A stretch of 64,000 nucleotides of DNA, from positions 3,519 to 67,518 of the forward strand of contig JAGWWT010000003.1 of the NCBI GenBank assembly GCA_018970245.1, written 5' to 3'. This DNA comes from Patescibacteria group bacterium. Lineage in GTDB: Bacteria > Patescibacteriota > Minisyncoccia > Phycocordibacterales > PALSA-1337. The notes under the pieces are model-generated. The model was not told the origin of the DNA, made no database searches, and saw nothing but the letters and a program-made list of their open reading frames with translations. This document shows, piece after piece, positions 15,847 to 55,882 of this stretch. A program made the position numbers and the translations under genes. Each line of letters begins with the position of its first letter. Position 1 is the first letter of the stretch.

Positions 15847-15862
15847 CCGCCTAATTCTAGCA

Positions 15863-17164: not shown

Positions 17165-17165
17165 G

Positions 17166-17708: not shown

Positions 17709-17710
17709 GT

Positions 17711-18310
17711 CTAATCAAGAATAACAGTAACTTTTTCCAGCCAATATCGCAAAGGTTTTTCATTTGTGACTAGGAATGCCCTGCCGCCAAGCTTTTCAAA
17801 GTATCCGCAGGTTGTTGGGGAATCATCTATAAGAACCGAACTCCCAATCGTCGAACCAATCCTTTCAATGACATCAAGGTAAGCTTTCCCTTCATTGTCG
17901 TTTTTTGAATTTCCACGCGAATGAGAAGACTCTATGAGATCAAAATGTTCATCCAACTTAAGAGTTGGAACGGTGAATCGCTCGAAGCAGTCCATATTAT
18001 CCGTCATAAGAACGGCTATGAATTTGCTCCTCAAAGAATCGATTGTTTTCAGGTCAGTCTCATCGACTTTCATAGTCTTGCAATCTGAAACAAATAGATT
18101 CCAGAGCATTTCATAGTCAATGCCAAGTTCCTCCGACAGAAAACGATTAATATCTTCTGAAGAATATTTATTCCTCATCCAATCGTTTACTCTCTGTTTG
18201 TCGGAAAACAGAAGTTCTTGAATTTTCACATTATTTGTCTTATCTAAGCTTCTCCAAAACCTATCGAAACAAAGCGTACCGTCGAAGTCTACGAATAAGA
18301 CCGGCTTCAT
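17711..18310 (-). CDS. HAD-superfamily hydrolase (AT-rich, likely horizontally acquired)
   Basis: Motif I, FVDFDGTLC (DxDGT). The gene is markedly AT-rich relative to its flanks. Confidence 0.6.
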   Translation of the reverse strand: MKPVLFVDFDGTLCFDRFWRSLDKTNNVKIQELLFSDKQRVNDWMRNKYSSEDINRFLSEELGIDYEMLWNLFVSDCKTMKVDETDLKTIDSLRSKFIAVLMTDNMDCFERFTVPTLKLDEHFDLIESSHSRGNSKNDNEGKAYLDVIERIGSTIGSSVLIDDSPTTCGYFEKLGGRAFLVTNEKPLRYWLEKVTVILD

Positions 18311-18355
18311 GACTTAAGCATACTATCAAGCGTCGCCATCTGCTAATATTCTCAT

Positions 18356-19516: not shown

Positions 19517-19565
19517 CATTTTCCTGGTCCGGAGTAGTTTGTCACCAGAACAGAAAGGTCAAAAT

Positions 19566-20261
19566 ATGAGAAATGTGATCATCGCCGGAAAAGGCAACAT
19601 GGCGCAGCTCTTCACGACGGAGCTCCAACATATGGGGTACGACGTCTATGATTTCGAGCATCTTCCTGATGGCTACGTGGCCGGATTGGACAGTTCCGAA
19701 ACAGTCGGGTTGCACGTGGGAAGCGGCAAGGATCTGGACCGATTCGTGGCCAGATGCGCCGATCTCGAAATACCAGTCCTCCAAGGATCGACTGGCCAAA
19801 AGATAGACGAGGCCTGGCCTGGCTTGGTGGTCAACGCAGATAACTTCGCCTTGCCGATCCTGCGCGTGATCCAGCTCCTGTCCAAGATCGCCGGTAGCCT
19901 CGGTCCCTCGCAAGGCTTGAACATGAAAGCTGGCCTGGCCGAATCCCATCAGTGGTCAAAGAAATCTGTGCCTGGCACAGCCAAGCGGATGGCTGCTGCG
20001 ATCGGCGTCGAAGAATCGGACATAAAGTCCGTGCGCGATCCTGACCTGCAGATGGCCATGGGAGTGCCAGCCGATGCGCTAGATGCTCACGGCCACCACT
20101 TCCTGACTTGGACAGGCTTCGGAGTGCAGATCCAACTTACCACGAGGATCAACGGCCGCGGCGCCTATTTCGAAGGCGGCCTGCACTTGCTGCAGATACT
20201 GCACGACAGACGCCATGAGAGAGGGGTGCACGACGTCCTCGACTTCCTCGACCGGAAGTGA
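19566..20261 (+). CDS. dapB: 4-hydroxy-tetrahydrodipicolinate reductase-like (DapB family)
   Basis: The DapB signature region ESHQWSKKSVPGTAKRMAAAIG matches the (L/I)HHxxKxDAPSGTA block, with N-terminal NAD-binding VIIAGKGNMAQ. Start placed at the ATG MRNVIIAG; the ORF extends to 19539. Confidence 0.6.
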   Translation: MRNVIIAGKGNMAQLFTTELQHMGYDVYDFEHLPDGYVAGLDSSETVGLHVGSGKDLDRFVARCADLEIPVLQGSTGQKIDEAWPGLVVNADNFALPILRVIQLLSKIAGSLGPSQGLNMKAGLAESHQWSKKSVPGTAKRMAAAIGVEESDIKSVRDPDLQMAMGVPADALDAHGHHFLTWTGFGVQIQLTTRINGRGAYFEGGLHLLQILHDRRHERGVHDVLDFLDRK

Positions 20262-20311
20262 GGCGGGGCGCTCCAGATGACAGTTCCAAGCTCGCAGCGA
20301 TGCGGGCGTTT

Positions 20312-21043
20312 TTATTTCACAAAGAAAGTCGCTCTGACCGTCACCATGACGTTCTTTTCGATGGATGAGGTGTCGTATTGGCCGTAATCGGAGACATCTA
20401 TCGAGTTCGGCGCAAGGACCTGGACGACGCCGCTCGAAGCCGCCTTGAGAGCGCCTACCCTTGTGCCGGCGCTGCTGGCGATCTGCTCTGCCCTGTTCCT
20501 CGCATCCGTGAGCGCGGCGCCGAGGAGAGAGACGCGCAAGGCGGCCAGCTTCGAAGAGAAATACTGCGGCTGGTCGGCCATGACCAAGATACCCTTCGAA
20601 GTCAGCGCCTCGGTCGATTTCGAGAGCTTGTCTATGATCTGCGGATCGTCGGACTGGACAGTCACTCTCTGGCTCACCTCGAACTGCCTCGGTCCGCCGC
20701 TTTGGTCGGTCTTGTAGTTATACTGCTGCATCGTCATCGGCGCGGCTATGGTTATGTCAGCGTCCGGGATCCCGTTATCGGAAAGGAACTTCTTGGCTGC
20801 CGCAAGATCCGAAGCGAGCCCTGAATATGCGCCCTCCAAGTAGCCTTCCGTGGCCTGGCGCGACAGCGTGAATGACCATGAAGCATTGTCGGCTGAGACC
20901 TTTTGGGAAGCCGACCCTGTGACCACCAGGGTGTTATCGAAGCTGCGGACCGTGATAAAGGCGTAGACGCCTATGAGGGACGCGACCACGAGGGCTGCGC
21001 CCAAAATGATCGCCGGAGCGATCAAAGAGTTCTTATTTTTCAT
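20312..21043 (-). CDS. SIMPL/DUF541-family periplasmic protein (YggE-like), N-terminal TM anchor
   Basis: 243 aa with TM anchor and SIMPL-like pattern (...TVRATFFVK C-terminus). Confidence 0.5.
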   Translation of the reverse strand: MKNKNSLIAPAIILGAALVVASLIGVYAFITVRSFDNTLVVTGSASQKVSADNASWSFTLSRQATEGYLEGAYSGLASDLAAAKKFLSDNGIPDADITIAAPMTMQQYNYKTDQSGGPRQFEVSQRVTVQSDDPQIIDKLSKSTEALTSKGILVMADQPQYFSSKLAALRVSLLGAALTDARNRAEQIASSAGTRVGALKAASSGVVQVLAPNSIDVSDYGQYDTSSIEKNVMVTVRATFFVK

Positions 21044-21061
21044 GAGCAGATTGTACCACCT

Positions 21062-21802
21062 TCACTTGACGAATTCATCATCGGCAGAAAGCCGGCTATG
21101 CACACGCGTGTCGCTCTCCATCTCGCCGTCCATGAGACGGATTATGCGCTCGGCGTGGTCTGCGGTAGAGGTCTCGTGGGTGATGAGGACTATCGTCTTC
21201 CCGTGCTCCTCATTCAGGTGCTGCATGATGGCCATGACGGTCTTGCCGGATTTGCTGTCGAGATTGCCGGTCGGCTCATCCGCGAAGATGACCTCTGGAT
21301 CAGTCACCAGCGCGCGAGCGATGGCCACTCTCTGGCGCTCGCCGCCGGAGAGCTCAGACTGGCCGTGATGCATGCGATGGGCCAGACCGACCGATTCGAC
21401 TGCTTCGCGCGCGCGATCGTCCCATTCATGCTCTGGTATCTTCGAATAATAGAGAGGCAGTTTGACGTTGTCGATGACGCTCGTCCGCGGCAGAAGGTTG
21501 AAGGCCTGGAAGACGAAGCCGATTTCCCTGTTGCGCAGATCGGCAAGCTCGTCTGAAGTGTATGAGGTCACATTCTTGCCGTTGAAACGGTAGCTGCCAG
21601 AGGTCGGCTCGTCGAGAAGGCCCAAAAGGTGCAGAAGGGTCGATTTCCCGCTCCCTGATGGCCCCATGATGGCCAAGAATTGGCCGCGCGGCACGTCGAA
21701 GCTGACCTTATCCAGAGCGACAGTCGGCGTCTCGCTGCCGTCTCCGTAGGCCTTGCGGAGATTCTTGACGGAGATGACGCTTTCGGCTTCTTTGGCAGTC
21801 AT
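21062..21802 (-). CDS. ABC transporter ATP-binding protein (MacB/LolD-type)
   Basis: Walker A GPSGSGKST; signature LSGGERQRVAIARAL; Walker B IFADEPTGNLD. Confidence 0.9.
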   Translation of the reverse strand: MTAKEAESVISVKNLRKAYGDGSETPTVALDKVSFDVPRGQFLAIMGPSGSGKSTLLHLLGLLDEPTSGSYRFNGKNVTSYTSDELADLRNREIGFVFQAFNLLPRTSVIDNVKLPLYYSKIPEHEWDDRAREAVESVGLAHRMHHGQSELSGGERQRVAIARALVTDPEVIFADEPTGNLDSKSGKTVMAIMQHLNEEHGKTIVLITHETSTADHAERIIRLMDGEMESDTRVHSRLSADDEFVK

Positions 21803-22404
21803 TTGAATAGGGCTTTGATGTCTCCGGCGAGCTCGGGAAATTCCGAACCAGTGAAATGTCCTCGTCCTTCGAACTTCTTTAATATCGCATTCGGCAAGCG
21901 CTCTTTGTAAGATTCAGCATCTTTGAAGTCGACATAGGGATCATCCGTGCTGTGGTATATGGTGATCCTGCCTCCCTGTTCAGAGAGCAGATCGAGGCTT
22001 TTTGGCAGGATAAAATCTGCCATATCCTTCTCATTCGGATCGTTCGCAAATGGCGCAGCCACCAATAATACGGCCTCCAGTCTCATTTTCAATTTATTTT
22101 CCGACAGATACTTGGCTAAGAAGATGCCTCCCAATGAATGCCCCACGAGCACCGAGTTGTCTTTAATCTGCGGCACGATCTTATCGAACCAGATCTTCCA
22201 CTCGAGGTACTTGGCATTAGCACTGTTCGGCATTCTTGGCGTATATACTAGAAAGTCAGTACCTAGCAATGCTTCTAATGTTTCTCGCCACCTCTTCCTT
22301 CTGGCATCTTCAAGGTCGAATTCCTCCGCCTTCAGGTCGGCGATGTACTTCTCGTATGTTTCCGGCGTATCGCCGCCGTGGATGACGATGACTTGGCGCT
22401 TCAT
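21799..22404 (-). CDS. alpha/beta-fold serine hydrolase (RBBP9/YdeN-like)
   Basis: Nucleophile elbow GHSLGG; about 200 aa. Confidence 0.6.
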   Translation of the reverse strand: MKRQVIVIHGGDTPETYEKYIADLKAEEFDLEDARRKRWRETLEALLGTDFLVYTPRMPNSANAKYLEWKIWFDKIVPQIKDNSVLVGHSLGGIFLAKYLSENKLKMRLEAVLLVAAPFANDPNEKDMADFILPKSLDLLSEQGGRITIYHSTDDPYVDFKDAESYKERLPNAILKKFEGRGHFTGSEFPELAGDIKALFK

Positions 22405-22416
22405 GATGTCAGTATA

Positions 22417-22674
22417 TCACTTATACAATTCTGGATGCGTGCCTATCGCGACGATAAGGACACTGCCCTTCTCCTTATAATAGATCGCCCGATAGTTACC
22501 AGTGATGTTGATGCTTCGGCAGCCAGAATATGCCCGTTCGACAGAATGATTGTTCAAAATAACGTGATAGGGTTCACGCAGGAACAGTGCAATACGCTCG
22601 TCAAACTGCTCCCGAAGCCTTGGGGACAATTTCTTCAATTTCTTTTTTGCGTCGGAGTGAAGAAAAACGTGCAT
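22417..22674 (-). CDS. relE: type II toxin, RelE/ParE superfamily (YafQ-like mRNA interferase)
   Basis: 85 aa; C-terminus GCRSINITGNYRAIYYKEKGSVLIVAIGTHPELYK matches the RelE/YafQ pattern. It lies 3 nt downstream of a DinJ-like gene. Confidence 0.7.
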   Translation of the reverse strand: MHVFLHSDAKKKLKKLSPRLREQFDERIALFLREPYHVILNNHSVERAYSGCRSINITGNYRAIYYKEKGSVLIVAIGTHPELYK

Positions 22675-22677
22675 CTC

Positions 22678-22977
22678 CTAATTATCCAGCCATTTTTTCA
22701 TCTGTGCAACTGACGTGAAGGCCGGGGAGATGTTCTTACCCTTTTTGAAGTCGTTGATCGCGCGCTCTATTTGCCTTCGGGTGCGGTCATTGAAATGCTC
22801 TTCTTCGGATACGTCGACATTGAACCTCTTTTCTGCATAGGCTCTAAGGCTCAGCTTTAAAACAGCGGAAAGCGGAATGCCTTCGCTTTTGGCTCTTTTC
22901 ATTGCCTGTTCCTTGATCTTGCTATCGACATTGATGATAACAGTTGATGTCATGTTTTTGTATTTATTTTTGGCCAC
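22678..22977 (-). CDS. relB: type II antitoxin, DinJ/RelB family
   Basis: TSTVIINVDSKIKEQAMKRAKSEGIPLSAVLKLSLRAYAEKRF resembles the DinJ N-terminal RHH-like region. Start is 22977 or 22953. AT-rich. Confidence 0.65.
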   Translation of the reverse strand: MAKNKYKNMTSTVIINVDSKIKEQAMKRAKSEGIPLSAVLKLSLRAYAEKRFNVDVSEEEHFNDRTRRQIERAINDFKKGKNISPAFTSVAQMKKWLDN

Positions 22978-22986
22978 GTCTGACTA

Positions 22987-23024
22987 GACGCATATATATC
23001 TTATATATTACAAATATATATGTC
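22987..23024. promoter_or_regulatory. imperfect inverted repeat (GACGCATATATAT - N14 - ATATATATGTC) upstream of the TA operon; candidate autoregulatory operator/promoter
   Basis: Read directly at 22987-23024. It is AT-rich with TATA-like boxes and sits 10-50 bp upstream of the antitoxin start. Confidence 0.4.
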
Positions 23025-23480
23025 AATCATTCCGGCCCCTGAAGCTCAGGATGTAATCGAGCAGTTCGGACAGATTGCATCTGGCTAATCCGATCGCCGT
23101 ATCGGCCGCACCGTAATAGACATAAAGCATGTCGCCGATCACTATTGCGCCTTCAGGAAAAGTCACATTGGGCACAAGACCGGATGTTTCATATTCCGTG
23201 GCCGGCTGCAATAGATATCCTGGGACTCTTGCGATCAGTTTGTCCGGTTCATCGAGGTCGAGGAGGCTGCACCGATCGTCCAAGAGTCTGACATGGATTC
23301 ACCCGAGTAAATGAGAAGCCAGCCTTTATCGGTTCTGAACAGCATCCTAACTAGATCTTTATCCTGAACGACGGATGGGTTGAAGACGGCTTTGCCTTCC
23401 CATCCGACGTCTGGTCTTGGGATCAAAATCGGCTTAGGTTCTTCTTCGCTCGGATAACGCTCTAGATGGAATTTTTTCAC
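23023..23480 (-). pseudogene. glycoside hydrolase family 130 (mannoside phosphorylase-like) remnant, frameshifted and truncated
   Basis: Two ORFs in different frames carry the GH130 N-terminal block (KAVFNPSVV...GWLLIYSGES) and C-terminal block (LYVYYGAADTAIGLARCNLSELLDYIL). Together about 160 aa versus the roughly 300 aa expected. Confidence 0.6.
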
Positions 23481-23489
23481 GATTGAATC

Positions 23490-25013
23490 TTACTGCTTTA
23501 TGTACGTCACCACCTTGTCGCCCACATTCAAGCCGGAAGTGATCTCGGTCGTGCCGTCGGAACCCTTGAGGCCGATCGTCACGGGAACGGAAGAATATGT
23601 CTTGCCGTCGGCGGAAACTAGCCTTACTGACTTGGCGCCGTTATCGTCGGTTATAGCGCGCGATGGGACTTCAAGAACATCTGCCGCCTGGTGCGTGAGG
23701 ATATCCAGGTTTGCGGTCATCCCAGAACGGATGCGTGCATCTGGCGTGACAAAATACAGCGTGACCTTGTAGGTCGGAACTCCCTCGATGACCGTCTCTG
23801 CAGGGTCGATCATAGCTACCTGCGACGGAAAATCGGTATCGGAACCGTAAGCGTCCAGTGTCGTCGAGGCCAGATCGCCGACCGCTACTTTGGCGATGTC
23901 CGCTTCCGGGACATACGCTTCTATCTTGAATGAGCTGTTCTGGACCGCAAATCCGGAAGAGCCTGCAGCCGCGAACTCCCCTACTGACGGATCGGCTCTA
24001 GTGACGATGCCGTCGATGGGCGAAGTCAATGTATCCTGATCGAGCACGGCTTTCGCCTGAGCCACTTTGGCCGCCTGGGCCGCTATAGACTGCTCTGAAT
24101 TGCCAGAGAGCTTCAGGTTATAGTCGGATAGCGCCTGGTCATATGAAGCCTGCGCGGCAGTCAGGCTGGATTGGGCGGTCGTCACGGCGTCTATCGCGGA
24201 ATTCAGAGCTGAAAGCGCCGAGTTCATGGAAGCCACATCGGAATCGATGGCTGACTGCGATAGCCCGGAATTGCCGGTGCTCATAGCATTGACGACCCCT
24301 GAAAGGTCAAGCATGAAGGACTTGATCTTCGACAGATACCCGGCGGCGTCGGCAAGGAGGCTGGCCGCGGACGTAGATGAGGCCTGGGAGAGCTCGGACG
24401 ACCACTGATTGAATACGCTGCTCACCGCCACGCGCTCGTTGTTCAGCAGATTCTGGTGCACGGTCGAGTCGACGCGGATGTTTATGGCTGGATTGGCGCT
24501 CTGCGGATTGGAGAAGAAGATATCGGCGTAATTGACCTCTGCGCCTTGGGCTTTGGCATAGGCGTCATGGAAGGAGTTCACGGCCGCGTCTTTGGCGCTG
24601 TCCAGAGCGGTCTTGGACGAAGCTACGTCGGATTCCTGGACAGCGAGCTCTGCGGGGGTGAGAGAGCGCGACATATCCGCCAGAGTCGCCTCAGCGCTCG
24701 CCAGCGCGGCCCTGTCGGCAGAATCGTCCAACGAAGCTATCTTATCGCCTTTCTTGATTTGGTCGCCGACTTTGACATATATCTCGGATATGACGCCGCT
24801 CTTCTCGAAGGCCAAGTCCGCTTTGCCTATAGGAGATACGGATCCAGTGACGGAGACGAGCTCAGTCACGGTGCCTATCTGGGCGGAAGCCGCATCGAAG
24901 TTCGGGGGTTGATTGCTGCTCCTGACCGCGGAAATGACGACGATCAGCACGATTATGACGGCTATAGCGATGAACCACCAGCTCTTTAGGAACCTCCAGC
25001 GGGATTTTTTCAT
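23490..25013 (-). CDS. HlyD/MacA-family periplasmic adaptor (membrane fusion protein) with long coiled-coil
   Basis: N-terminal TM, biotinyl-lipoyl-like half (IASLDDS...; TLTSPIDGIV), long Ala/Ser-rich helical hairpin and a C-terminal beta domain. Start at the ATG MKKSRWRF. Confidence 0.8.
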   Translation of the reverse strand: MKKSRWRFLKSWWFIAIAVIIVLIVVISAVRSSNQPPNFDAASAQIGTVTELVSVTGSVSPIGKADLAFEKSGVISEIYVKVGDQIKKGDKIASLDDSADRAALASAEATLADMSRSLTPAELAVQESDVASSKTALDSAKDAAVNSFHDAYAKAQGAEVNYADIFFSNPQSANPAINIRVDSTVHQNLLNNERVAVSSVFNQWSSELSQASSTSAASLLADAAGYLSKIKSFMLDLSGVVNAMSTGNSGLSQSAIDSDVASMNSALSALNSAIDAVTTAQSSLTAAQASYDQALSDYNLKLSGNSEQSIAAQAAKVAQAKAVLDQDTLTSPIDGIVTRADPSVGEFAAAGSSGFAVQNSSFKIEAYVPEADIAKVAVGDLASTTLDAYGSDTDFPSQVAMIDPAETVIEGVPTYKVTLYFVTPDARIRSGMTANLDILTHQAADVLEVPSRAITDDNGAKSVRLVSADGKTYSSVPVTIGLKGSDGTTEITSGLNVGDKVVTYIKQ

Positions 25014-25040
25014 AGAAAAGTTGCATATATTGTAGCACAA

Positions 25041-29629: not shown

Positions 29630-30313
29630 TCAGATCGCGGGCGTCCTCCAAGCCGTATTATTGGCCATGAAGTAGTCTAGTGTGCTCGCGTACGACGGAT
29701 TGACGGTCCATTGCACTCCCTGCATCTGGACAGCAAAGGCGTTCGGGGCCGCGTTCCGGACCAAGAAGGTCGCCGTCACGGGTATGACTATGGTCCTCCC
29801 TTGCGGGATGGTGAAGTAATATCCATCAGCCGATAGCGTGGTACTGGCCGGCTGAGAATATGCGACAGCTTGGACAGACATGGGCGACAGAACGCCATTC
29901 TTGTAGACCCCGAATGACGAAGCGCCGTATGACCAGGCCGGATGAGGAGACATGGGCAATCCCATAGTCACGGATCCGCCGACAGCTGAGACGGAGACAT
30001 AGAAGGTGGCCTGATACGTAGTCGTGCTGTTCCCGAATTGGTCGTAGATGGTCGTCATCTTGGCGATCGTCGGAGCGCTGGCTAGCGATATCGAAGGCGA
30101 TGCGGTCACGCATGGGGTCGGCGTAGGCGACGGGTACGACAGGCTTGAAGTCACCAAGGCCGAGCTCGATCCGGGATCATAGCTCGAGGCGGTCTGCATC
30201 GCAGCAGCCACCTGGGGCAAGCTGTACGACATCCAAGCTAGCGCGCCGAGAACGAGCAGGTATTTGAACTCGTTCCCGAAAAGCGGCTTTCCATCTATCA
30301 ATCTTTTTCTCAT
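29630..30313 (-). CDS. secreted protein, paralogous to a domain of the 1155-aa surface protein
   Basis: Signal/TM. The block YSQPASTTLSADGYYFTIPQGRTIVIPVTATF aligns with SYIQPPGTALSSDGTSFTIAQNQTVTIPVTLRF in ORF 30514..33978. Confidence 0.7.
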   Translation of the reverse strand: MRKRLIDGKPLFGNEFKYLLVLGALAWMSYSLPQVAAAMQTASSYDPGSSSALVTSSLSYPSPTPTPCVTASPSISLASAPTIAKMTTIYDQFGNSTTTYQATFYVSVSAVGGSVTMGLPMSPHPAWSYGASSFGVYKNGVLSPMSVQAVAYSQPASTTLSADGYYFTIPQGRTIVIPVTATFLVRNAAPNAFAVQMQGVQWTVNPSYASTLDYFMANNTAWRTPAI

Positions 30314-40316: not shown

Positions 40317-40559
40317 ATGGCCAAAGTATGCGAAATAACAAAGAGGGGCTCGGTCGTCGGCGGCCGTTATTCGAACCGCACCCGCGCCACCCAGTTCAAT
40401 CCTTGCGGATCGATGCGCCGGTATCCGAACCTCCAGCGCAAGCGCATCTACGTGCCCGAGCTCAAGAAGACCTTCGTGGTCAACATCTCTACGCGCGCCC
40501 TCCGCACAATCGAAAAGAACGGCGCATACCGCACCCTGAAGAAAGCCGGCCTCATCTAA
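40317..40559 (+). CDS. rpmB: 50S ribosomal protein L28
   Basis: MAKVCEITKRGSVVGGRYSNRTRATQ... Confidence 0.85.
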   Translation: MAKVCEITKRGSVVGGRYSNRTRATQFNPCGSMRRYPNLQRKRIYVPELKKTFVVNISTRALRTIEKNGAYRTLKKAGLI

Positions 40560-41520
40560 GCGGCTCTACCCTGATCTCCCCGCCATCGGACACTATCTTC
40601 ATAGTGCCCTTTTCTTTAATATTGAAACCTATTCCGGCCGGCACCGGCTGGCTCTTCGCCGTTCCGCCGGGGGCTTTCGCGTAGATGAGGTACGCGGGGC
40701 TGACCGCTTCGGTGAATTTTGCCGCCATGTTGGACTGTATAGCGCTTTGGCTGACTATGAGAACATCTGACTTCAAGACCTTAGCAGATGACGCAACGAA
40801 CTTCTGGACTTTTGGGGTGGCAGCGCCCATGAATAGCGCCGAAGTCGCGCCATACGAGATCCTGAACAGTAGCTCCGGCGAGCTGCTCTTTGAATAGGCG
40901 AACGATCCTGAAGGCGCTGGAAAGAGCGCTTCCATTCCGACACGTTCATCGAGGACGATCGAGTCTCCAGCCGCCAATCCATGGACCGGCACTTTCTTCG
41001 AAGAGGCTTCGTCCAGGAGAGCCTTATAGGTATCGTCGCCTCCCTCTGCGGTGACCGCCGGAAGATAGAGATCGCCTACGTCGTATCTTTTCAGCGCATC
41101 GACCAGTCCGACCGTCTCCTTTGCGTCCGCGCCTGTCGCTATGACCGCATCGATGCGGCGCGAATAGAATGGCAGGACAGACGATAATTCGCTCATGATA
41201 TCGCCATTGCCCCCTCCGTCCACGAGGATGCGCCGGTCATTGGGAGTCCTCAAGAGCATGGCGCGGCCGCTGGACAGGTCGAAGACGAATATCTCCAGCA
41301 CGCGCGGTCGAGATTGCTCATGCCAATAGTAGCCTGCCAGTCCGAGAGCCATCGCCGCGGCGGCGGCGGCGATCGCGGTGCCTGATGATATCCTCATAGA
41401 CGGATCATACTCTCCGGATATGAAATCCTGATGAAGAAAAGATGAAAAAAGGATAAAATCTAAAGCGAGGCCTGCGCTAGGCCAGCCTGCTGAAACTTTA
41501 ATCATATTTAACTCGTACAA
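40552..41520 (-). CDS. membrane-anchored ComEC C-terminal-like metallo-beta-lactamase-fold domain protein, apparently lacking the HxHxDH zinc motif
   Basis: LEIFVFDLSSGRAMLLRTPNDRRILVDGGGNGD resembles ComEC/Rec2 MBL domain entry. At the expected HxHxDH position the sequence is VIATGADAKET. N-terminal TM. Confidence 0.6.
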   Translation of the reverse strand: MYELNMIKVSAGWPSAGLALDFILFSSFLHQDFISGEYDPSMRISSGTAIAAAAAAMALGLAGYYWHEQSRPRVLEIFVFDLSSGRAMLLRTPNDRRILVDGGGNGDIMSELSSVLPFYSRRIDAVIATGADAKETVGLVDALKRYDVGDLYLPAVTAEGGDDTYKALLDEASSKKVPVHGLAAGDSIVLDERVGMEALFPAPSGSFAYSKSSSPELLFRISYGATSALFMGAATPKVQKFVASSAKVLKSDVLIVSQSAIQSNMAAKFTEAVSPAYLIYAKAPGGTAKSQPVPAGIGFNIKEKGTMKIVSDGGEIRVEPLR

Positions 41521-41525
41521 TCATC

Positions 41526-42134
41526 ATGCCTCGATTCACTGCCAGAACTTTCAAGATCCCCAAGATCAAGGGCATCTCCGAAAAGACCATAGAAGAGCAC
41601 CTCAAGCTATACCAGGGCTATGTCAAGAATGCCAATTCCATTCTGGAGAAGATCCCGGAATATTCGCAGTGGGCCGAGAAGGACCCGTTCGTGCCCTATT
41701 TCACCGGTGAATTGAATCGCCGCTTCAGCTTCGAGTACAACGGCATGCGCAATCATGAGATCTATTTCGCCGGCTTCGAGGGCGGACCAAAGTCGCTGGC
41801 TGATTCAAGTCCTCTCAAAAAGATGATCGCCGAAGCATGGGGATCGTTCGACGCGTGGCTCGCCAAATTCAAAGGCATGGCCGCTTCCGTGCGCGGCATC
41901 GGCTGGCAGGTCCTTTGGTATGATCCGATAGACGAGAAGCTCCTCATGTCCTGGGTCGACGAGCAGCACTATGGCGAGCTCAACGGCTGCTCCATGATCC
42001 TGGGCCTGGACATGTGGGAGCACTCATACGTCGCAGACTACCAGCCGTCAGGCAAGAAGGCTTATATCGAGGATTTCTTCGCTAACCTCAACTGGGAGAC
42101 CATCGAGAGCAATCTCGAGAGGGCAAGAGAGTAG
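41526..42134 (+). CDS. sodA: Fe/Mn superoxide dismutase
   Basis: Ligand blocks NHEIYF (NHxxYW-like) and DMWEHSYVADY (DVWEHAYY). 202 aa. Confidence 0.8.
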   Translation: MPRFTARTFKIPKIKGISEKTIEEHLKLYQGYVKNANSILEKIPEYSQWAEKDPFVPYFTGELNRRFSFEYNGMRNHEIYFAGFEGGPKSLADSSPLKKMIAEAWGSFDAWLAKFKGMAASVRGIGWQVLWYDPIDEKLLMSWVDEQHYGELNGCSMILGLDMWEHSYVADYQPSGKKAYIEDFFANLNWETIESNLERARE

Positions 42135-42136
42135 GC

Positions 42137-42166
42137 CGTCCAATGGCTCTTCATTGGGCGGTTTTC
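42137..42166 (+). terminator. rho-independent terminator after sodA
   Basis: 10-bp stem CCGUCCAAUG/CAUUGGGCGG (one G-U), loop GCUCUU, then UUUUCC. Confidence 0.55.
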
Positions 42167-42182
42167 CTAATGTGTCTTGGGG

Positions 42183-43511
42183 TCATTTAGTCTTCCTTCT
42201 ATTCATAGACCTGACTAGAAAAAAGACGGTCAGGATGACGGAATAGAACCCTGCCACCCACCAGCCCGAGAACGCCGGCACGTGGATCGCCGCGAATGGC
42301 AGGCGCGCGAGATTTTGGACTACGAATAGCTCGTAAGCGAGCAGTATGTGGCTGGCCCAGCCGAGCGCTTGCGAAGCGGCGATCGATGCCATGCCAGCGA
42401 TACCGGTCGCGAAAACGGTTAGCATCGTCACCGGTATGAACGGCAGGACGAGGATATTCGCGGCCATTCCTATCACCGACAATTGCCCCATCGTATAGAG
42501 GATGTACGGCGAGACGAAAAGCTGAGTCGACAGCGTCGCCGCCACGATGCCGCGGAGGCCGAATCGGTCGGTTATGAATGCCAGCCGCTCCTCGATCGGC
42601 GAGGCGAGCATTATGAGCCCGGCTGTGGCCAGGAATGAGAGCTGGAAGCCAGGATCATGGAAGAGCACCATGGGGCTTTGGATGACCATCACTAGTCCTG
42701 CGAACATGAGGGCGCGGATGACATCGTAATCGCGGCGGAAGAGATCGGCGGAGAGCGCTACGCCCGCCATGAAGCAGGACCGGATGACCGTCGCTCCGCC
42801 GCCCACCATGACGCCGAAAAGCGCGATGCCGATGCCGCCGACCGCGATCCCCCAGGCTCTTGGCAAGAATGAGAGGACCTTCCTGATAGCTGCGGCCACG
42901 ATAGTGATGTTGAAGCCGGACAATACGACGATATGGATGAGGCCGACTGCCCTAAAATCATCGAGCAGGCTTTTGCCTAGAGCCGCCTTCTCGCCGACGA
43001 CCAGGCCGGCGGCCAAAGCGGCGTGAGGTTCGCCCAGGACCCGATCGAGATTCTCTACGAATCGGCGTTTTATTGCGTACAAGATCGAAGTGACGCTCGG
43101 CCTAGCGGCTAGATCGTCTTTTGACGCCTCTGCGCTCCGCATCTCGTAATAGATCCCATCCTTGGCCAGATAGCCCTTATAGTCGAATTCCCGCCCTGGG
43201 TCGCTGCGAAAATTCATGGGTTCCAAAAGCTTGCCTTTGAACGATATATGGTCGCCATAGCTGAATACAGGATAGGCCTTAGCCTTCATCCTTATGAGAA
43301 AGCCTGAGCCGCATCTAGATCCGTCCACGTCGACGACCAGGACCTGGCCCGTTCCGGTCCTCTGCGGCTCTTCGGATATCGTGCCGGAGCCTTCGACGGT
43401 CTGCTTCAGGCAATCGCCTATCTGCGGAGGTTCGGCGTAGAGCGACTGCCATACGCGGAATGCCGCGGCCGCTATGAAAATGCTCCAGAAGAGCGCCGGT
43501 CCCTTCTTCAT
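42183..43511 (-). CDS. comEC: ComEC/Rec2 N-terminal part: OB-fold (DUF4131) + competence channel domain, no MBL domain
   Basis: 442 aa. Periplasmic OB-like region then polytopic domain (IHIVVLSGFNITIV... competence motif). Confidence 0.75.
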   Translation of the reverse strand: MKKGPALFWSIFIAAAAFRVWQSLYAEPPQIGDCLKQTVEGSGTISEEPQRTGTGQVLVVDVDGSRCGSGFLIRMKAKAYPVFSYGDHISFKGKLLEPMNFRSDPGREFDYKGYLAKDGIYYEMRSAEASKDDLAARPSVTSILYAIKRRFVENLDRVLGEPHAALAAGLVVGEKAALGKSLLDDFRAVGLIHIVVLSGFNITIVAAAIRKVLSFLPRAWGIAVGGIGIALFGVMVGGGATVIRSCFMAGVALSADLFRRDYDVIRALMFAGLVMVIQSPMVLFHDPGFQLSFLATAGLIMLASPIEERLAFITDRFGLRGIVAATLSTQLFVSPYILYTMGQLSVIGMAANILVLPFIPVTMLTVFATGIAGMASIAASQALGWASHILLAYELFVVQNLARLPFAAIHVPAFSGWWVAGFYSVILTVFFLVRSMNRRKTK

Positions 43512-43580: not shown

Positions 43581-44273
43581 TTATAGAGCTTCGAATTCCT
43601 CGATGATATAGGCTTCCTCAGCAGCGCTCATGGCTTTCTTGTACTTCGCGCCCTTGGCGCCTTTAACCCTCTTTTCGCACTCAGCCCACGTAGGGTGGAC
43701 TTCTATGACGCCGCCCACAGAGCTCACATATGAATGGGGCTTTCCGCCAGATCTCGATCTGATCGGCGCCTTTTGCGAGATGTCCAATATATTCGGCAGA
43801 TCATAACCGGCGAGCGGCCCGTCATAAAGCTTCACATCCATTCCATCCGCAAAAGCAGTGGCGATGCGGTCGCAGCGCTCATTTCCGACGATGCCGATGT
43901 GCCCGCCTACATATCGCCATGAGACCGTCATCCCGCTCGCAGCCTCCGAGAGCTCGAGCCATAGGTCTTTATTCAAGACATCTTCTTTTGCCTTCGTCTT
44001 CCAGCCATTCCTTTTCCAGCCGGCGAGCCATTTAGTGATGCCGTTTATCAGATATGATGAATCCGTATGGACAGTCGCCGACAGCGCGCCTAGCTTGGCC
44101 GCCGCTTTCAGCCCATGGATGGCGGCAGATATCTCCATCCTGTTATTGGTCGTGCTGCGGACGACTCCGCCGATCTCTTTCACAGCGCTCTCGCACACGA
44201 CCACAGCCGCCCAGCCTCCCGGCCCCGGATTCCCGCGCGACGAACCATCCGTGAATATAGTCGCTTCTTTCAC
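43581..44273 (-). CDS. rnhA: ribonuclease HI with a C-terminal hybrid-binding (Cauli_VI-like) domain
   Basis: RNase H core IFTDGSSRGNPGPGGWAAV...TDSSYLINGITKWL...; C-terminus KPHSYVSSVGGVIEVHPTWAECEKRVKGAKGAKYKKAMSAAEEAYII. Likely GTG start at 44273, 2 nt after the recJ stop; the ORF extends to 44393. Confidence 0.7.
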   Translation of the reverse strand: MKEATIFTDGSSRGNPGPGGWAAVVVCESAVKEIGGVVRSTTNNRMEISAAIHGLKAAAKLGALSATVHTDSSYLINGITKWLAGWKRNGWKTKAKEDVLNKDLWLELSEAASGMTVSWRYVGGHIGIVGNERCDRIATAFADGMDVKLYDGPLAGYDLPNILDISQKAPIRSRSGGKPHSYVSSVGGVIEVHPTWAECEKRVKGAKGAKYKKAMSAAEEAYIIEEFEAL

Positions 44274-44275
44274 GC

Positions 44276-46006
44276 TCAAGAATATATCACATCGACGATC
44301 CTTAGGCGCAATTCTGGGCGCCCGCGGAACATCGACAGCTCTACCGAGGCCGCCAGGTCTATCGACATGCCCTTCCTGACGGCTTTGGCCCATGGTTCGG
44401 ATATGCCGAAGAATGCTATCGCTGGCAGCTTCGATCCGTCGGATCTCCTGAAAACGAGCTCGACATGCTCGTTGCCTTTTCCGAAGATCCTTATATCCGC
44501 TGGTTTGACAGACTTGAGCAGAAAGACGGGCTTTGGATTACCGATGCCGAACGGAGCGAGACGGTCGATCTCCTTGTACAGCCACATGTCGACCGAATCC
44601 AATGAAAGCTCGGCGTCCGCCTCTATGGCGCCGTATCCGGCATCTGATATCTGATATCTGGCATCTCGGAGCTTATCAGCTGCTTCGTTCAGCCTCTGCT
44701 CGAGAAAATGGATCTGATCGCTAGCGACAGCGAACCCGCCGGAATGCTTATGGCCGCCATACTTGGAAAAGACGCCGGCCGGCACGGCCCTCATCAATTC
44801 GACCACATGAGTGCTCCCCTCAGATCGGCAAGATCCTTTTATCTCGTTGCTGCCGTCGCGGCCCCAGAGGAAGACCGGTCTGCCGAATTCCTCTGCGCAA
44901 GAATTCGCCGCAAGGCCGAGAAGGGACGGCCGCCATTCCGGGTCGCCAAGGACGATGACGCTAGGCACCGCTTCCCCATGCCGTTCGCGGACGGTCTTCT
45001 TCACTTCTTTGACGAGCGAAGCGACCACGCCCTTGCGCTCGCTGTTTATGGAATCGAGATGGTCGGCATAGACGTTCGCATCGTCATCGGTCGAGGCCGA
45101 AAGGAGCTTGAATGCATCCATGGGAACCCCCATGCGCGAGGCCGCATTTATCCTGGGAGTGATCATGAAAGCGATGTCGTCCTCTGTCACATGCCGCTGA
45201 GCGATCTTCAGCTTATTGAAAAGGCGCATCAGGCCCTTGCGCGGGCTCTTGCGCAGGACCTGCAGGCCATATGCCGCGAAGATACGATTCTCGCCGACGA
45301 GAGGAACCATGTCCGACAGAGTCGCCATGCCGACGAGGTCGAGGAGCCACTTCTCCATCCCTTCCTTGAGGCCGAACCTCTCTATTTTCAAGACCGCCTG
45401 TATGAGCTTGTAAGCCACGCCTGAGCCGCAAAGGCCTTTGTCCGGATATGCGCAGCCTGGCTGCTTCGGATCTACTATGGCGAAAGCGGGCGGCATGAGA
45501 GGCGGCGCCTCATGATGGTCGGTTATGATCACGTCCATCCCTAGGCTGTTCGCCGCCGCCGCAGGCCCGACATCAGTGATCCCGCAATCGACAGTCATCA
45601 AGACCTTAGCGCCTTTTTCGGCCAGTTCCCTGACGGCGTTCTCATTCAGACCGAATCCTTCATCATGGCGATGCGGAATGTAAATGACATAGCCGCTGAA
45701 ACTGATCCTCTTGAAGAAGTCGTCCCATATCGCAGCGCCAGGTATGCCATCTGCGTCGTAATCGGCGAAGACGGCGATCTTCTCGCCGTTGCGGACCGCC
45801 TGCGCTATCCTTTGAGCCGCCTTCTCTGCATCCTTGAGCAAGAATGGGTCATGGACGCCAGTCTCATAATCCGGCGAGAGGAAGGCTTTGGCGGCCGCAT
45901 CGTCCATGATGCCGCGGTGGAAGAGGAGATGCGCAAGAAGGTCTGTATGCGCAGACAGCCCGGCTCTCTCGGCCGCCGAAAGCGGCTTCTTAACGGAGTA
46001 TTTCAC
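44276..46006 (-). CDS. recJ: single-stranded-DNA-specific exonuclease RecJ
   Basis: DHH motifs IAVFADYDADGIPGAA, VIITDHHEAPP; DHHA1 C-terminal domain. Start set at GTG 46006 (VKYSVKKPLSAAERAGLSAHTDLL), because the long ORF to 46333 would overlap the divergent HIT gene. Confidence 0.8.
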   Translation of the reverse strand: MKYSVKKPLSAAERAGLSAHTDLLAHLLFHRGIMDDAAAKAFLSPDYETGVHDPFLLKDAEKAAQRIAQAVRNGEKIAVFADYDADGIPGAAIWDDFFKRISFSGYVIYIPHRHDEGFGLNENAVRELAEKGAKVLMTVDCGITDVGPAAAANSLGMDVIITDHHEAPPLMPPAFAIVDPKQPGCAYPDKGLCGSGVAYKLIQAVLKIERFGLKEGMEKWLLDLVGMATLSDMVPLVGENRIFAAYGLQVLRKSPRKGLMRLFNKLKIAQRHVTEDDIAFMITPRINAASRMGVPMDAFKLLSASTDDDANVYADHLDSINSERKGVVASLVKEVKKTVRERHGEAVPSVIVLGDPEWRPSLLGLAANSCAEEFGRPVFLWGRDGSNEIKGSCRSEGSTHVVELMRAVPAGVFSKYGGHKHSGGFAVASDQIHFLEQRLNEAADKLRDARYQISDAGYGAIEADAELSLDSVDMWLYKEIDRLAPFGIGNPKPVFLLKSVKPADIRIFGKGNEHVELVFRRSDGSKLPAIAFFGISEPWAKAVRKGMSIDLAASVELSMFRGRPELRLRIVDVIYS

Positions 46007-49753: not shown

Positions 49754-50266
49754 ATGACCAAACGCTTCCGAGGACATCTCCGCGCTGACGGTTTTTCTCT
49801 AGTCGAGCTCCTTATAGCTACGGCGATAGTCGTAAGCGTCGTCACGGCCGCATCAGGAGCTTGGCAGCTGTATCTCCGCCTTTCGAATCAGGCGGCGGGA
49901 ATGACCCAGGCCTCGCTCCTGGCAGAAGAAGGGGTCGAGGCCATGAATCTACTCCGGGACCAGGGGTGGGCTGCGAATATCGCGCCCCTTTCGCTGGATA
50001 CGCCCTACTATCTCTATTACAGCACTAGCACCTATAGCTACGGATTCTCTGCCTCTCCGGTCATAATACCAGGCGGCTACACCCGCACTGTCACCCTATA
50101 TGCGGTGAATCGCGATCCCACGACATACGATATCACCAGCACGTCGACTTCTTGCTCTAGCTGCGATGCAGGCACTCGAGACGCGCTCGTATCGGTCTAT
50201 GAAGGAAGCTCGACGGTCCCGGTCATGGAAGATGAGACTCTCATACACAATGTCTTCAATAATTAG
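49754..50266 (+). CDS. type IV pilin/pseudopilin-like protein
   Basis: GFSLVELLIATAIV N-terminal motif. Confidence 0.65.
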   Translation: MTKRFRGHLRADGFSLVELLIATAIVVSVVTAASGAWQLYLRLSNQAAGMTQASLLAEEGVEAMNLLRDQGWAANIAPLSLDTPYYLYYSTSTYSYGFSASPVIIPGGYTRTVTLYAVNRDPTTYDITSTSTSCSSCDAGTRDALVSVYEGSSTVPVMEDETLIHNVFNN

Positions 50267-50768
50267 AAAACCCAAGAATGGCTTCACGCTGGTCGAGGTC
50301 CTGGTATATATCTTCGGCCTGGTCCTATTGGTAGGCGCCATCTCCGGATTCCTTTACTACGTTTACGGCTGGTACAGGGCGGTGACAGTGGCTCCCAGAG
50401 CCGATCAAGTCGCCATCTCCCTCATCACGAAGCTAGAGTATGACCTGCACTCCGGCAGCACCATCTCGACGATCACTTCCGCTTCGTCGGCGCAGGGGTC
50501 GACTACCATAGTCTCGACTGTGAATTCCGTCTCGACGACTACGACCTACGCCTTGGTCGGCAACAGGATGACATGGCAGCAGAATGGGGGCCCGATAGAA
50601 TACCTCACGCCATCGGACATATCAGTGACAGGCTTCTACCTGACCAAGCTGACGACGCCTGAGTCCACAGCCGTGCGTTTCGAGATCGACCTCTCATACG
50701 ATTCCTCTCATGCCACGACGACCACCGCATATGACGGCCTGGCCATTCTGGATCAATCATACCAATGA
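50250..50768 (+). CDS. type IV pilin-like protein
   Basis: MSSIIRKPKNG|FTLVEVLV motif. ATG at 50250, 17-nt overlap with the previous pilin. Confidence 0.65.
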   Translation: MSSIIRKPKNGFTLVEVLVYIFGLVLLVGAISGFLYYVYGWYRAVTVAPRADQVAISLITKLEYDLHSGSTISTITSASSAQGSTTIVSTVNSVSTTTTYALVGNRMTWQQNGGPIEYLTPSDISVTGFYLTKLTTPESTAVRFEIDLSYDSSHATTTTAYDGLAILDQSYQ

Positions 50769-52075
50769 AGACGAGCCTCAAAAAAAGATCCGGCGGCTAC
50801 GTGATCATACTCCTGACTTTGCTGTTCATCAGCATCACGCTCGCCATCGCCATGTATGCCGGAGCGCCCATTCTCGCCCACTACTCATCTTCAGCCGGAT
50901 TCGTCGCCTCGAAACAGGCCTTCGGCGCAGCTCAAGCCGCGGCAGATGAGGCGCTGTATCGCGTGAAAACCGGGCAGAACATGCCCTCGACCGTGAACAT
51001 CTCGCTCGGGACAGGATCATCCACCATCCTCACCCAAAGCGGAGCCAATACTAAATCGATAACGATCGAGAGCAGCCAAGGAAACTACCAGAGGGACTTC
51101 CATATGGATCTCGTACTGGGCACCGGCATCTCGTTCCATTATGGGATCCAGTCCGGGAATGGCGGATTCTATCTGACGAACAGCTCTAGCGTGACCGGCA
51201 ACATCTTCTCGTCTGGGTCTGTGATCGGATCCGGTAACACGATAGCGGGCGACGTGATATCGGCCGGGGCTTCTGGCTTGATCAGCGGCATAACCGCTAC
51301 AGGGACGGCTTATGCCCACACTATCCAGAATTCCACGATCCAGAACGCCGCTCATTATATGGTCATCGATCCCAATACGACGGTCGGAGGATCGCCATGC
51401 CCCAATGCGAACTGCTACCCGAACAGCTCCGACCTGCCGACCGAGCCGCTGCCGATAAGCGATGCGCAGATAAGCCAGTGGGAAAGCGACGCAGCCGCAG
51501 GCGGGACTGCTTCGTGTTCCAGCGGCGCGTACACGATATCGTCGGATATGAGCATAGGGCCACTGAAGATACCGTGCGACCTGGCTATAAAGAACTCGAC
51601 CGTGACCATCACCGGGCCCATATGGGTGACTGGGAACATCGATATCAAGGGCTCGACGGTGCAGATGTCCAGCAGCCTGAACAGCCAGAATGTGGCCATA
51701 ATAGCTGACAATCCTTCTAACACTACCGGCAGCGGCATCATAAGCGTCGACACCAGCTCCCAATTCTATGCCGCAGGTTGCCCGAACTCGTGCGTCCCTG
51801 GCGCATATGTCTTCCTCATCTCCCAGAACAACAGCGCCGAGACTGGCGGCTCGACTGCGGCCATAACGCCTGGCCAGAGCTCTAGCGGCCTCATAACCTA
51901 CGCCTCGCACGGCCAGATAAACGTCGGGCAGAGCGTACACCTGAAGGAGGTCACCGCATACAAGATCGTCATCTCGAACACGGCGAACGTCACATATGAT
52001 TCTGGGCTTGGCAGCTCGCTCTTCGAATCCGGCCCAGGCGGCGCATATACTCTCGTGGATTGGTACGAATACTAG
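50765..52075 (+). CDS. large pilus-associated protein (PilX/minor-pilin-like N-terminal helix, Ser/Thr/Gly-rich beta-rich body)
   Basis: N-terminal hydrophobic helix GGYVIILLTLLFISITLAIAMY and a 436-aa Ser/Thr-rich body; translationally coupled to the pilin genes. Confidence 0.5.
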   Translation: MKTSLKKRSGGYVIILLTLLFISITLAIAMYAGAPILAHYSSSAGFVASKQAFGAAQAAADEALYRVKTGQNMPSTVNISLGTGSSTILTQSGANTKSITIESSQGNYQRDFHMDLVLGTGISFHYGIQSGNGGFYLTNSSSVTGNIFSSGSVIGSGNTIAGDVISAGASGLISGITATGTAYAHTIQNSTIQNAAHYMVIDPNTTVGGSPCPNANCYPNSSDLPTEPLPISDAQISQWESDAAAGGTASCSSGAYTISSDMSIGPLKIPCDLAIKNSTVTITGPIWVTGNIDIKGSTVQMSSSLNSQNVAIIADNPSNTTGSGIISVDTSSQFYAAGCPNSCVPGAYVFLISQNNSAETGGSTAAITPGQSSSGLITYASHGQINVGQSVHLKEVTAYKIVISNTANVTYDSGLGSSLFESGPGGAYTLVDWYEY

Positions 52076-55246: not shown

Positions 55247-55882
55247 TCACACCGGTTCCGATCCGTGCGGATGGTTCCAGAGGACCAGCCCGCACTCCTT
55301 CGGCACCTCTAGTCGCCTGGAATACACGTGGGCATGGACTTGGAAGTCGAACCCGTCCACAGGCCGGTGTATGGCCAGTATGCTGGGGACTTTGCGCGGG
55401 TCGTCCTCGAGCGGCTTATGGAGGACCAACAGCCACTCGAATCCGAGCGATTCCAGATCCGCGTCCGAGATCAGCAGCCTTAACGGCAGGCAGACCTCTG
55501 GGAACGGCAGGCTGAATCCGAGGACATCGGCCACGGCTTCGACGCTGTCGATGTCGAGCCGATCGTTCTCCAGCATCCCTACGGCCGGGAGGACGATAAG
55601 ATCATGATGGAACCAGCGTCCCATCATCTCTTTGTTCTCCGGCGTGACCTCTCCGAAACGAGGATGCGCGAATACGGCCTTTGCTTCTGGACTGACGCTG
55701 ACGCCATTCCTTGCCGCAAGCTCCAGGAGGGCGTCCCCCCGGAGCGGCAGCAAGCCTGCCGTCGGGACGCGCACAGACCATTGCCCGCGTATCTCAGACC
55801 AAATGCGGCAATCCTGGTGCCATAACCGCGCTCCTCGCACGGCTTTGCTCTCATCTGCTTCTAATGTGCTCATGATACTCAT
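55247..55882 (-). CDS. hypothetical protein upstream of pilB
   Basis: 211 aa; I recognise no motifs. Confidence 0.4.
   Translation of the reverse strand: MSIMSTLEADESKAVRGARLWHQDCRIWSEIRGQWSVRVPTAGLLPLRGDALLELAARNGVSVSPEAKAVFAHPRFGEVTPENKEMMGRWFHHDLIVLPAVGMLENDRLDIDSVEAVADVLGFSLPFPEVCLPLRLLISDADLESLGFEWLLVLHKPLEDDPRKVPSILAIHRPVDGFDFQVHAHVYSRRLEVPKECGLVLWNHPHGSEPV

Follow-up and report, generated by a model that had tools for sequence, protein, structure and literature searches.

The 64,000-nt stretch of DNA analyzed here (hereafter the window; all coordinates refer to the whole stretch) comes from an ultra-small bacterium of the Patescibacteria, or Candidate Phyla Radiation (CPR), and encodes the DNA-uptake channel protein ComEC in two genes, between which lies a gene for superoxide dismutase (SOD), sodA. 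One gene (42183-43511, minus strand) specifies the channel, and the other (40552-41397, minus strand) specifies the detached C-terminal module, a membrane-anchored protein of the metallo-β-lactamase (MBL) fold in which the ligands of the binuclear metal site have been lost. Our literature searches returned no paper on a separately encoded MBL subunit of ComEC or on a degenerate form of it, Meheust et al. (2019) only noting that the fusion of the two parts is nearly absent in CPR bacteria. What is new here is a conserved, ligand-less, separately encoded homologue of the ComEC nuclease domain that stands within a graded evolutionary series.

ComEC in two genes

An earlier reading of this DNA, made from the sequence only, had claimed that ComEC is divided between two genes with sodA in between. 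The three open reading frames (ORFs) concerned were recovered at 42183-43511, 41526-42134 and 40552-41520, and the division was borne out by the Pfam domains of the first and by the homology of the third, separate ORF to the MBL domain of ComEC. The channel and MBL-like proteins tile the solved full-length ComEC 30bt_A consecutively and without overlap (residues 141-486, E 3.2e-23, for the former and residues 524-747 for the latter), the MBL part occupying its own gene 660 nt from the channel ORF, beyond sodA. The description of sodA as convergent holds relative to the channel gene but not relative to the MBL-like gene, from which sodA is divergent. Pfam scans also confirmed the reported presence of recJ and rnhA near the comEC genes, and likewise that of clustered genes for a type IV pilus (pilins, PilC, PilB).

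[quoted passage not shown] It matched the Pfam families Competence (PF03772, E 7.9e-47, profile positions 1-267 of 270) and DUF4131 (PF13567, the OB fold; E 1.1e-12, 48.3 bits against a cut-off of 31.6), and the same scan found no Lactamase_B domain in it. The protein passed the TIGR00360 model (ComEC_N-term) and failed the full-length model TIGR00361 (91.7 bits against a cut-off of 190; positions 48-408 of 663). It ends with a TM helix (residues 417-433) and the basic tail RSMNRRKTK (to residue 442), the stop codon falling at 42183-42185. Its homologues number 1290, the close ones being mostly 440-490 aa long and carrying the same two domains. Within the OB fold, which is predicted to lie outside the cytoplasm, the segment FDYKGYLAKDGIYYEM (43140-43187, minus strand) holds F109, Y111, Y114, L115, K117 and E123, all invariant in 22 orthologues. 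These invariant aromatic residues would be consistent with a working channel entrance, the structural role of the segment being drawn from PMC13539106 and its residue-to-residue mapping onto the window protein being putative.

Several close channel orthologues (P0062, P0064, P0088 and P0095; ~607-639 aa compared to ~450) carry a C-terminal extension of ~150 aa that matches PBECR2/PBECR3 (Barnase-EndoU-ColicinE5/D-RelE-like nuclease), the match in P0088 being above the cut-off (E 1.5e-7). This extension, also tied to L042 (3417-5294) and absent from the window channel protein, would be cytoplasmic, as it sits after the last TM helix and is followed by no further TM segment.

The MBL-like ORF matched no Pfam family at E ≤ 0.1 and stayed below the gathering thresholds of Lactamase_B and Lactamase_B_2; among 36 close homologues of the protein, only P0018 carries a precomputed PF12706 assignment. 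Phmmer aligned the protein with residues 524-747 of 30bt_A (E 6e-16) and with 9ic4 (E 7e-13). Its AlphaFold2 (AF2) model, with a predicted local distance difference test score (pLDDT) of 92.8 and a predicted template-modelling score (pTM) of 0.89, displays an N-terminal helix (residues 5-28) followed by the MBL sandwich. [quoted passage not shown] The protein has an alpha-beta/beta-alpha MBL fold behind a TM helix and is homologous to the C-terminal domain of ComEC, in agreement with the earlier view of the detached part as a membrane-anchored MBL-fold protein. The N-terminal TM anchor is the equivalent of ComEC TM11, and the MBL-fold domain is predicted to be extracytoplasmic.

The sequence-only reading had taken the MBL-like gene to be the whole ORF 40552-41520. 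While this ORF exists, the real start of the gene is probably the ATG at 41397 (M42 of the listed ORF), since homologues begin there, a start at 41520 would leave just 5 nt to the divergent sodA start, and the region between sodA and this ATG (41398-41525) is an AT-rich, promoter-like spacer. The 281-aa product from this ATG is identical to the NCBI protein P0001. The spacer, where the GC content dips to 0.48, harbors on the minus strand four TTYATC direct repeats with a spacing of ~11 nt (41420-41457) and a -10-like TATGAT (41403-41408) that ends 5 nt ahead of the ATG. The array has no second copy in the window, its triple-repeat pattern occurred in 0 of 50 shuffles, and most related loci (L001-L044) present similar repeats (TTTATC, TTCATC, TTGAAC) and a TATGAT/TATACT box before the ATG of their MBL-like gene. 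This layout suggests that the array may be an operator for a direct-repeat-binding regulator, and the proximity of the repeats and TATGAT to the ATG would point to a leaderless or very short-leader mRNA.

Metal-site loss and evolution of the MBL-like subunit

The metal ligands of Moorella glycerini ComEC are H598, D600, D602 and H603 in motif II and D700 in motif IV. Single alanine substitution of H598, D602, H603 or D700 nearly abolishes nuclease activity in vitro, whereas D600A causes just a ~5-fold loss; H725 and S728, in the region of motif V, were examined for a suspected part in DNA binding, and S728A lowered the rate ~3-fold (PMC12455585). In our alignments, the window residues at H598, D602, H603, D700 and H725 (M. 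glycerini numbering) are G, K, E, A and Q/S, respectively. The motif II sequence THPDADH of the solved ComEC aligns with TGADAKE of the window protein (41116-41136, minus strand; expected pattern T-H-x-[HD]-x-D-H), which places a lysine at the position of a metal-binding aspartate and leaves, as the only retained ligand of the motif, the Asp corresponding to D600, the least critical one. The earlier claim that the HxHxDH block is lost, with ATGADAKET in its place, was correct as to both the loss and the remnant, and the alignments showed no intact HxHxDH elsewhere in the MBL-like ORF. The other ligands have been lost as well. Motif I reads DLSSGR instead of DVGQGD, the bridging Asp of motif IV is replaced by Ala, and PHHGS of the solved ComEC aligns with SQSAI (40738-40752, minus strand; expected pattern x-H-H-G-S), the two histidines being replaced by Gln and Ser.

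To what extent the site has changed across the family was scored in 51 sequences, namely the orthologues of 50 species-level loci and the window protein, none of which has a complete metal site. The motif II Asp position is occupied by Lys in 39 of the 51 and by Arg in four; the first His of motif II is kept in three, the motif IV Asp in 11 and the second His of motif V in a single one. Those acidic positions that are left differ widely from member to member, the place of the first His being taken by N/D/S/H/G and that of the second by D/E/N/V/S. At the motif III position, the window protein reads YSKSSSPE (40873-40896, minus strand), corresponding to a family motif F-x-Y-S-K-A-S-x-P-E in which F166, Y168, S169, S172 and P174 are invariant (35 sequences). 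The Ser and Pro columns of this motif are conserved in all 49 members with a residue there, a Glu or Gln follows in 45 of 51 members, and K-x-Q-K, after motif IV, is a further new conserved stretch of the family. With its binuclear metal site lost and a conserved Lys at the key Asp position, the MBL-like subunit can hardly act as a metal-dependent nuclease, no binuclear site being predicted.

Relatives of the locus were collected by a pattern scan in which each GTDB species was represented by a single genome; it yielded 50 loci, and their gene order was determined by tblastn with the window proteins. Essentially all 50 loci share one arrangement, RecJ-RNaseH-ComEC(N)-SOD-MBL-like-L28-M50-S12-S7, with SOD and L28 on the opposite strand. 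SOD lies between the ComEC genes in 47 of them and is missing in L004, L015 and L022; in L022, the two ComEC genes are still separate, in different frames and overlapping by 4 nt. The channel gene is present in every related locus long enough to show it. Recurrence of the layout in 50 independent species-level assemblies excludes chance, assembly error and frameshift, and disposes of the concern, raised by the sequence-only reading, that the split might be an artefact.

Across 35 MBL-like sequences that are 33-46% identical to the window protein, 20 columns are invariant and another 23 nearly so. Ratios of nonsynonymous to synonymous substitution rates (dN/dS) in the closest genome pairs were 0.08-0.21 for the MBL-like gene, the corresponding ranges being 0.06-0.12 (channel gene) and 0.04-0.07 (SOD); these values are rough, dS exceeding 1 for nearly all pairs and the Nei-Gojobori (NG86) estimate failing for many, such that only the closest pairs were usable. 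The range obtained for the MBL-like gene indicates that it is under purifying selection. Shortened MBL-like genes were noted in L045 (6001-6693; ~230 aa, without the motif V region), and in L046 (6001-6705) and L047 (5162-5902), where matches end at about residue 249. The subunit may have been further eroded in some lineages.

A profile search of 1.84 billion cluster representatives returned 196 proteins at E ≤ 1e-30, and the best 150 of these were all standalone proteins of no more than 396 aa, with no channel fusion among them. Classification of 144 of the matches by six ligand columns revealed ~14 that keep DxGQGD, H-x-[HD]-x-D-H, the Asp and HHGS, a small intermediate group with N-D-x-H in which the Asp and His are retained, and more than 110 cluster representatives that keep three or fewer of the six ligand positions. 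The locus L053 (P0291) has the order RecJ-RNaseH-ComEC(N)-SOD-Lactamase_B, as in the window, and retains five of the six ligand positions, with Asn at the first His; L056 encodes an intermediate ligand form within the full syntenic block. In both L053 and L056, sodA has the position and orientation that it has in the window. All six ligands are present in L057 (P0294), L059 (P0300) and L060 (P0310), where a DUF4131+Competence gene has the Lactamase_B gene as its immediate downstream neighbor, at a distance of 189 nt in L057 and with overlaps of 4 nt in L059 and 11 nt in L060. In L051, also with fully intact motifs, two unrelated opposite-strand genes separate the channel and Lactamase_B genes. 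Since relatives with intact or nearly intact motifs share the two-gene layout, the two-gene state, and in one lineage also the interposed SOD gene, preceded ligand loss, which is a later event in a Paceibacteria subclade. In an unrooted neighbor-joining tree of 115 standalone MBL proteins, which cannot count loss events, intact and intermediate forms clustered together, the intact forms not being cleanly monophyletic.

The two-gene ComEC is not peculiar to the source genome and seems to be what CPR bacteria usually have, the ComEC-MBL fusion having been reported in only six CPR genomes (Meheust et al. 2019). What looks like a split may thus be a protein that was never fused.

Proposed function of the MBL-like subunit and comparison with known systems

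In the cryo-EM structure of Neomoorella carbonis ComEC, TM10 is followed by a short cytoplasmic helix, TM11, a flexible linker and the MBL domain. The OB fold and the MBL domain are both periplasmic, and a loop of the former contacts the latter and places its active site at the channel mouth (PMC13539106). Given that the window channel protein ends, and the MBL-like protein starts, with a TM helix, the break would fall in the cytoplasmic loop and both soluble domains would face outward. We consider it rather probable that the window, from a CPR bacterium of the Paceibacteria type, encodes a DNA-uptake channel formed by a two-gene ComEC in which the MBL-like protein plays a non-catalytic part at the channel mouth. 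The gene at 42183-43511 would provide the OB fold and the transmembrane channel for single-stranded DNA, and that at 40552-41397 would provide the last TM helix and the extracytoplasmic beta-lactamase-like domain of textbook ComEC. The MBL-like subunit would dock on the OB fold and channel entrance and thereby shape the entry vestibule, and its former active-site groove, lined with Lys, Arg and Ser, might bind or steer the non-transported strand, which would be displaced, or degraded by another enzyme. As to the history of the locus, sodA would have been inserted at a pre-existing gene boundary, the MBL-like gene then gaining a promoter of its own. The more far-reaching proposal, that a large Paceibacteria clade operates ComEC uptake with a separate, dead nuclease subunit whose site has become, with Lys, Arg and Ser, a groove that binds a strand without metal, is offered tentatively and is, in our judgment, somewhat doubtful.

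Several observations weigh against a non-catalytic role in the channel. Close to the old site there are still some acidic and polar residues, D90 and E94 in the case of the window protein, and a single metal might conceivably still be bound there. An AF2 model of the two subunits as one fused chain, built from an alignment with unpaired rows and only four channel homologues, reached a pTM of 0.56, its channel half being poorly resolved and the OB loop expected to touch the MBL domain having a pLDDT below 50; in a fold search with this model, against a library of PDB folds older than the full-length ComEC entries, only the MBL half was matched. The whole RecJ-to-S7 block is syntenic, and adjacency alone is therefore weak evidence of functional coupling. 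The two ComEC genes are also predicted to be separately transcribed, on account of the opposite-strand gene and hairpin between them and of the promoter-like region that the MBL-like gene has to itself. "Pin loops" of the MBL domain have been described at the channel mouth of ComEC, the second being essential in L. pneumophila ComEC. In the window family, the canonical G-x-x-N-x-Y-G-H-P region, to which the second pin loop can tentatively be mapped, is replaced by a variable, low-complexity stretch rich in Lys and Ser with lower pLDDT, so that a strand-separating role would need other residues. Finally, neither tblastn nor Pfam scans of 46 ORFs found a substitute nuclease, or a second ComEC or MBL protein, in the window.

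The MBL-like protein might instead have been uncoupled from ComEC and recruited to another surface function (envelope, pilus or host contact), its nearness to the channel gene reflecting synteny only. This we regard as unlikely, even though the gene is preceded by its own promoter-like region, in which the direct-repeat array is unique, is separated from the channel gene by an unrelated one, resides in a conserved RecJ-to-S7 region that includes clearly unrelated genes, and evolves somewhat faster (33-46% identity to the window protein, compared to ~53-69% for the channel). Against uncoupling speak the retention of the TM anchor and overall fold as in ComEC, the conservation of RTPxxxxILIDGG, LPFYxRxID and GLxxVxxRY, which are shared with catalytically intact standalone ComEC nuclease subunits, and the company of the channel gene in every locus long enough to show it; the 4-nt overlap of the two genes in the SOD-less L022, moreover, suggests coupled expression. 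Less probable still is that the protein remains an enzyme acting on DNA or another phosphodiester, whether metal-independent through the conserved Lys, Ser and Tyr or dependent on one metal that the leftover Asp, Glu or Asn would bind. The conservation of the replacement residues (Lys in 39 of 51, Ser/Pro in 49 of 49, Glu/Gln in 45 of 51) suggests that the pocket still matters, and the protein is under purifying selection of the same order as the channel gene. However, we know of no MBL-fold nuclease that works without a binuclear site, and pseudoenzymes are typically recognized by a Lys buried where a metal ligand would be. Activity is further disfavored by the wide variation of the remaining acidic positions across the family and by the finding that single ligand substitutions inactivate the ComEC domain (PMC12455585).

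The notion that the gene is a decaying relic or a pseudogene in the making, or that the split is an assembly or frameshift artefact, is refuted. The absence of a Pfam match, the loss of all catalytic motifs and the shortened copies in a few relatives (L045, L046, L047) would be expected of a relic. Yet intact ORFs occupy the same position in nearly all 50 genomes, the exceptions being shortened copies and cuts at contig ends; the related ORFs are not riddled with stop codons; and the dN/dS of 0.08-0.21, the 20 invariant columns and the AF2 pLDDT of 92.8 all argue against decay. A frameshift, for its part, could not have placed an opposite-strand SOD gene between the two halves.

Seen as a two-gene ComEC with a non-catalytic MBL-like subunit, the window system matches canonical ComEC/Rec2 (B. 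subtilis; Moorella/Neomoorella 30bt and 9IC4) in its three modules and their succession, from OB fold through competence channel to TM helix with MBL-fold domain, and has a type IV pilus cluster nearby. It departs from the canonical protein in that the modules are on two polypeptides from genes that are, by prediction, separately transcribed, and in that the MBL module lacks the metal ligands and goes undetected by Pfam Lactamase_B. Only one TM helix precedes the OB fold of the window channel, as predicted for H. pylori ComEC. The two-gene ComEC systems of other CPR-like lineages (P0291, P0294, P0300, P0310) likewise include a TM-anchored standalone MBL protein, of ~285-306 aa, encoded near a DUF4131+Competence gene. 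In these proteins, which match Lactamase_B, the motifs DxGQGD, [HN]-x-[HD]-x-D-H and HHG and the Asp of motif IV are preserved, whereas the window family has none of these motifs. Beyond ComEC, the MBL/beta-CASP paralogues CPSF100 and INTS9 no longer have their metal ligands and serve as conserved non-catalytic partners in nucleic-acid-processing complexes. The window protein shares with them the lost ligands, the conserved fold and the purifying selection; CPSF100 and INTS9 differ in being eukaryotic, in carrying a beta-CASP insertion and in pairing with an active MBL paralogue, whereas the window protein has no known active paralogue and would, if the proposal holds, have a membrane channel as its partner.

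Another ComEC with a possibly inactive C-terminal domain is that of S. pneumoniae, where the metal ligands are also substituted. There, EndA degrades the non-transported strand, and Silale et al. propose that this ComEC domain was kept as a DNA guide (PMC8579336). The S. pneumoniae domain is, however, still fused to the channel and has undergone only the conservative exchanges of His to Asn, Asp to Glu and Asp to Asn, whereas the window protein is separate and has nearly every ligand replaced, including Asp by Lys; no EndA-like partner was found in the window. A channel polypeptide composed of DUF4131 and Competence only is likewise seen in MBL-less ComEC (the Pfam "DC" profile, e.g. H. pylori), a profile that is common among ComEC proteins (Pimentel and Zhang 2018) and in which the handling of the second strand is an acknowledged open question (PMC8579336). 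The difference from "DC" ComEC is that the window genome does encode an MBL domain, in a separate gene and in a form invisible to Pfam, so that a survey based on domain profiles would score it as lacking one.

ComEC is the universal gate for natural transformation, and the role of its nuclease domain has been flagged as open by the field (PMC8579336). While CPR bacteria reportedly lack the ComEC-MBL fusion, our analysis reveals that the MBL module is encoded separately, as a membrane-anchored protein, next to or near comEC; being in a gene of its own, it is undercounted by surveys of domain architecture, and many ComEC proteins scored as MBL-less may have, if our proposal is true, an MBL subunit in trans. 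One gene neighborhood presents a natural series from proteins with five of six ligand positions, via intermediates, to ligand-less ones, all under purifying selection, and fully intact ligand sets occur in two-gene loci elsewhere. This graded series offers ready separation-of-function variants for docking, strand guidance and channel gating, some Patescibacteria now being genetically tractable, and the ligand-less subunit is a natural test of what the MBL domain does besides cutting DNA. Our result also bears on the purpose of DNA uptake in CPR bacteria, transformation or nucleotide scavenging. Were the rebuilt, metal-free groove real, the "nuclease" domain of ComEC would be essential at the channel mouth for separating or guiding strands rather than for catalysis, and degradation of the non-transported strand by ComEC itself would be dispensable.

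sodA and other features of the window

The gene lying between the two ComEC genes (41526-42134, plus strand) encodes a 202-aa Fe/Mn superoxide dismutase with a Sod_Fe_C match (E 8.8e-23) and a Sod_Fe_N score just short of the cut-off (25.4 bits compared to 27). Its translation contains DMWEH, which fits the pattern D-x-W-E-H and which we take, by eye, to be the SOD ligand motif. Directly after the stop codon, in the 48 nt that separate sodA from the convergent channel gene, RNA folding predicted a 13-bp hairpin followed by UUUU (42133-42166, plus strand; dG -22.6 kcal/mol, z -3.7), as stable a fold being obtained in one of 200 shuffles. This hairpin is likely an intrinsic terminator, in keeping with the earlier suggestion that the interposed SOD gene has a terminator of its own. 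It was missed by a simple scan for consensus promoters and terminators, the matches of which were no commoner than in shuffled sequence.

A functional part for sodA in DNA uptake was considered and rejected. The gene is absent between the ComEC genes in three related loci; there is none between the genes in the fully intact two-gene loci L051, L057, L059 and L060 (L053 has one); and the adjoining gap is a hotspot for unrelated insertions. sodA thus appears to be a passenger. The hotspot in question is the convergent junction of the channel gene and sodA (equivalent to window 42135-42182), where L005, L007, L008, L012, L026, L041, L045 and L050 carry inserts of 1-4 kb with unrelated, mostly unannotated genes; in the window, the junction consists only of the 48-nt gap with the hairpin.

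Further along the locus, the RNase HI encoded at 43581-44393 (minus strand) has its Cauli_VI/RNase H1-type hybrid-binding domain at the C-terminal end (residues 227-253), the usual place being N-terminal. Its ORF shares 118 nt with recJ, and in alignments with relatives the match begins only at about residue 37-46, which indicates that the true start is probably further downstream.

Elsewhere in the window, the S10/spc ribosomal-protein cluster is interrupted by non-ribosomal genes (~5457-6905 and ~8185-25040). A fused L,D-transpeptidase (YkuD) and D-Ala-D-Ala carboxypeptidase (S11) is encoded on the opposite strand between S8 and L5, and a histidine kinase gene is found just ahead of L2. L4 (13220-13924) and L3 (25103-25729) are ~11 kb apart, the gap including genes for a MacB/FtsX permease, an ABC ATPase, an HlyD-like protein, two MFS transporters and a protein with a tRNA-editing domain. 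Seven sizeable ORFs of the window had no Pfam match (8185-9024, 9138-9836, 9945-10778, 29630-30313, 50166-50768, 50765-52075 and 55247-55882). Two of these, 50166-50768 and 50765-52075, belong to the type IV pilus cluster by position, with the pilin genes on one side and PilC on the other, and may encode minor pilins or pilus-associated proteins.

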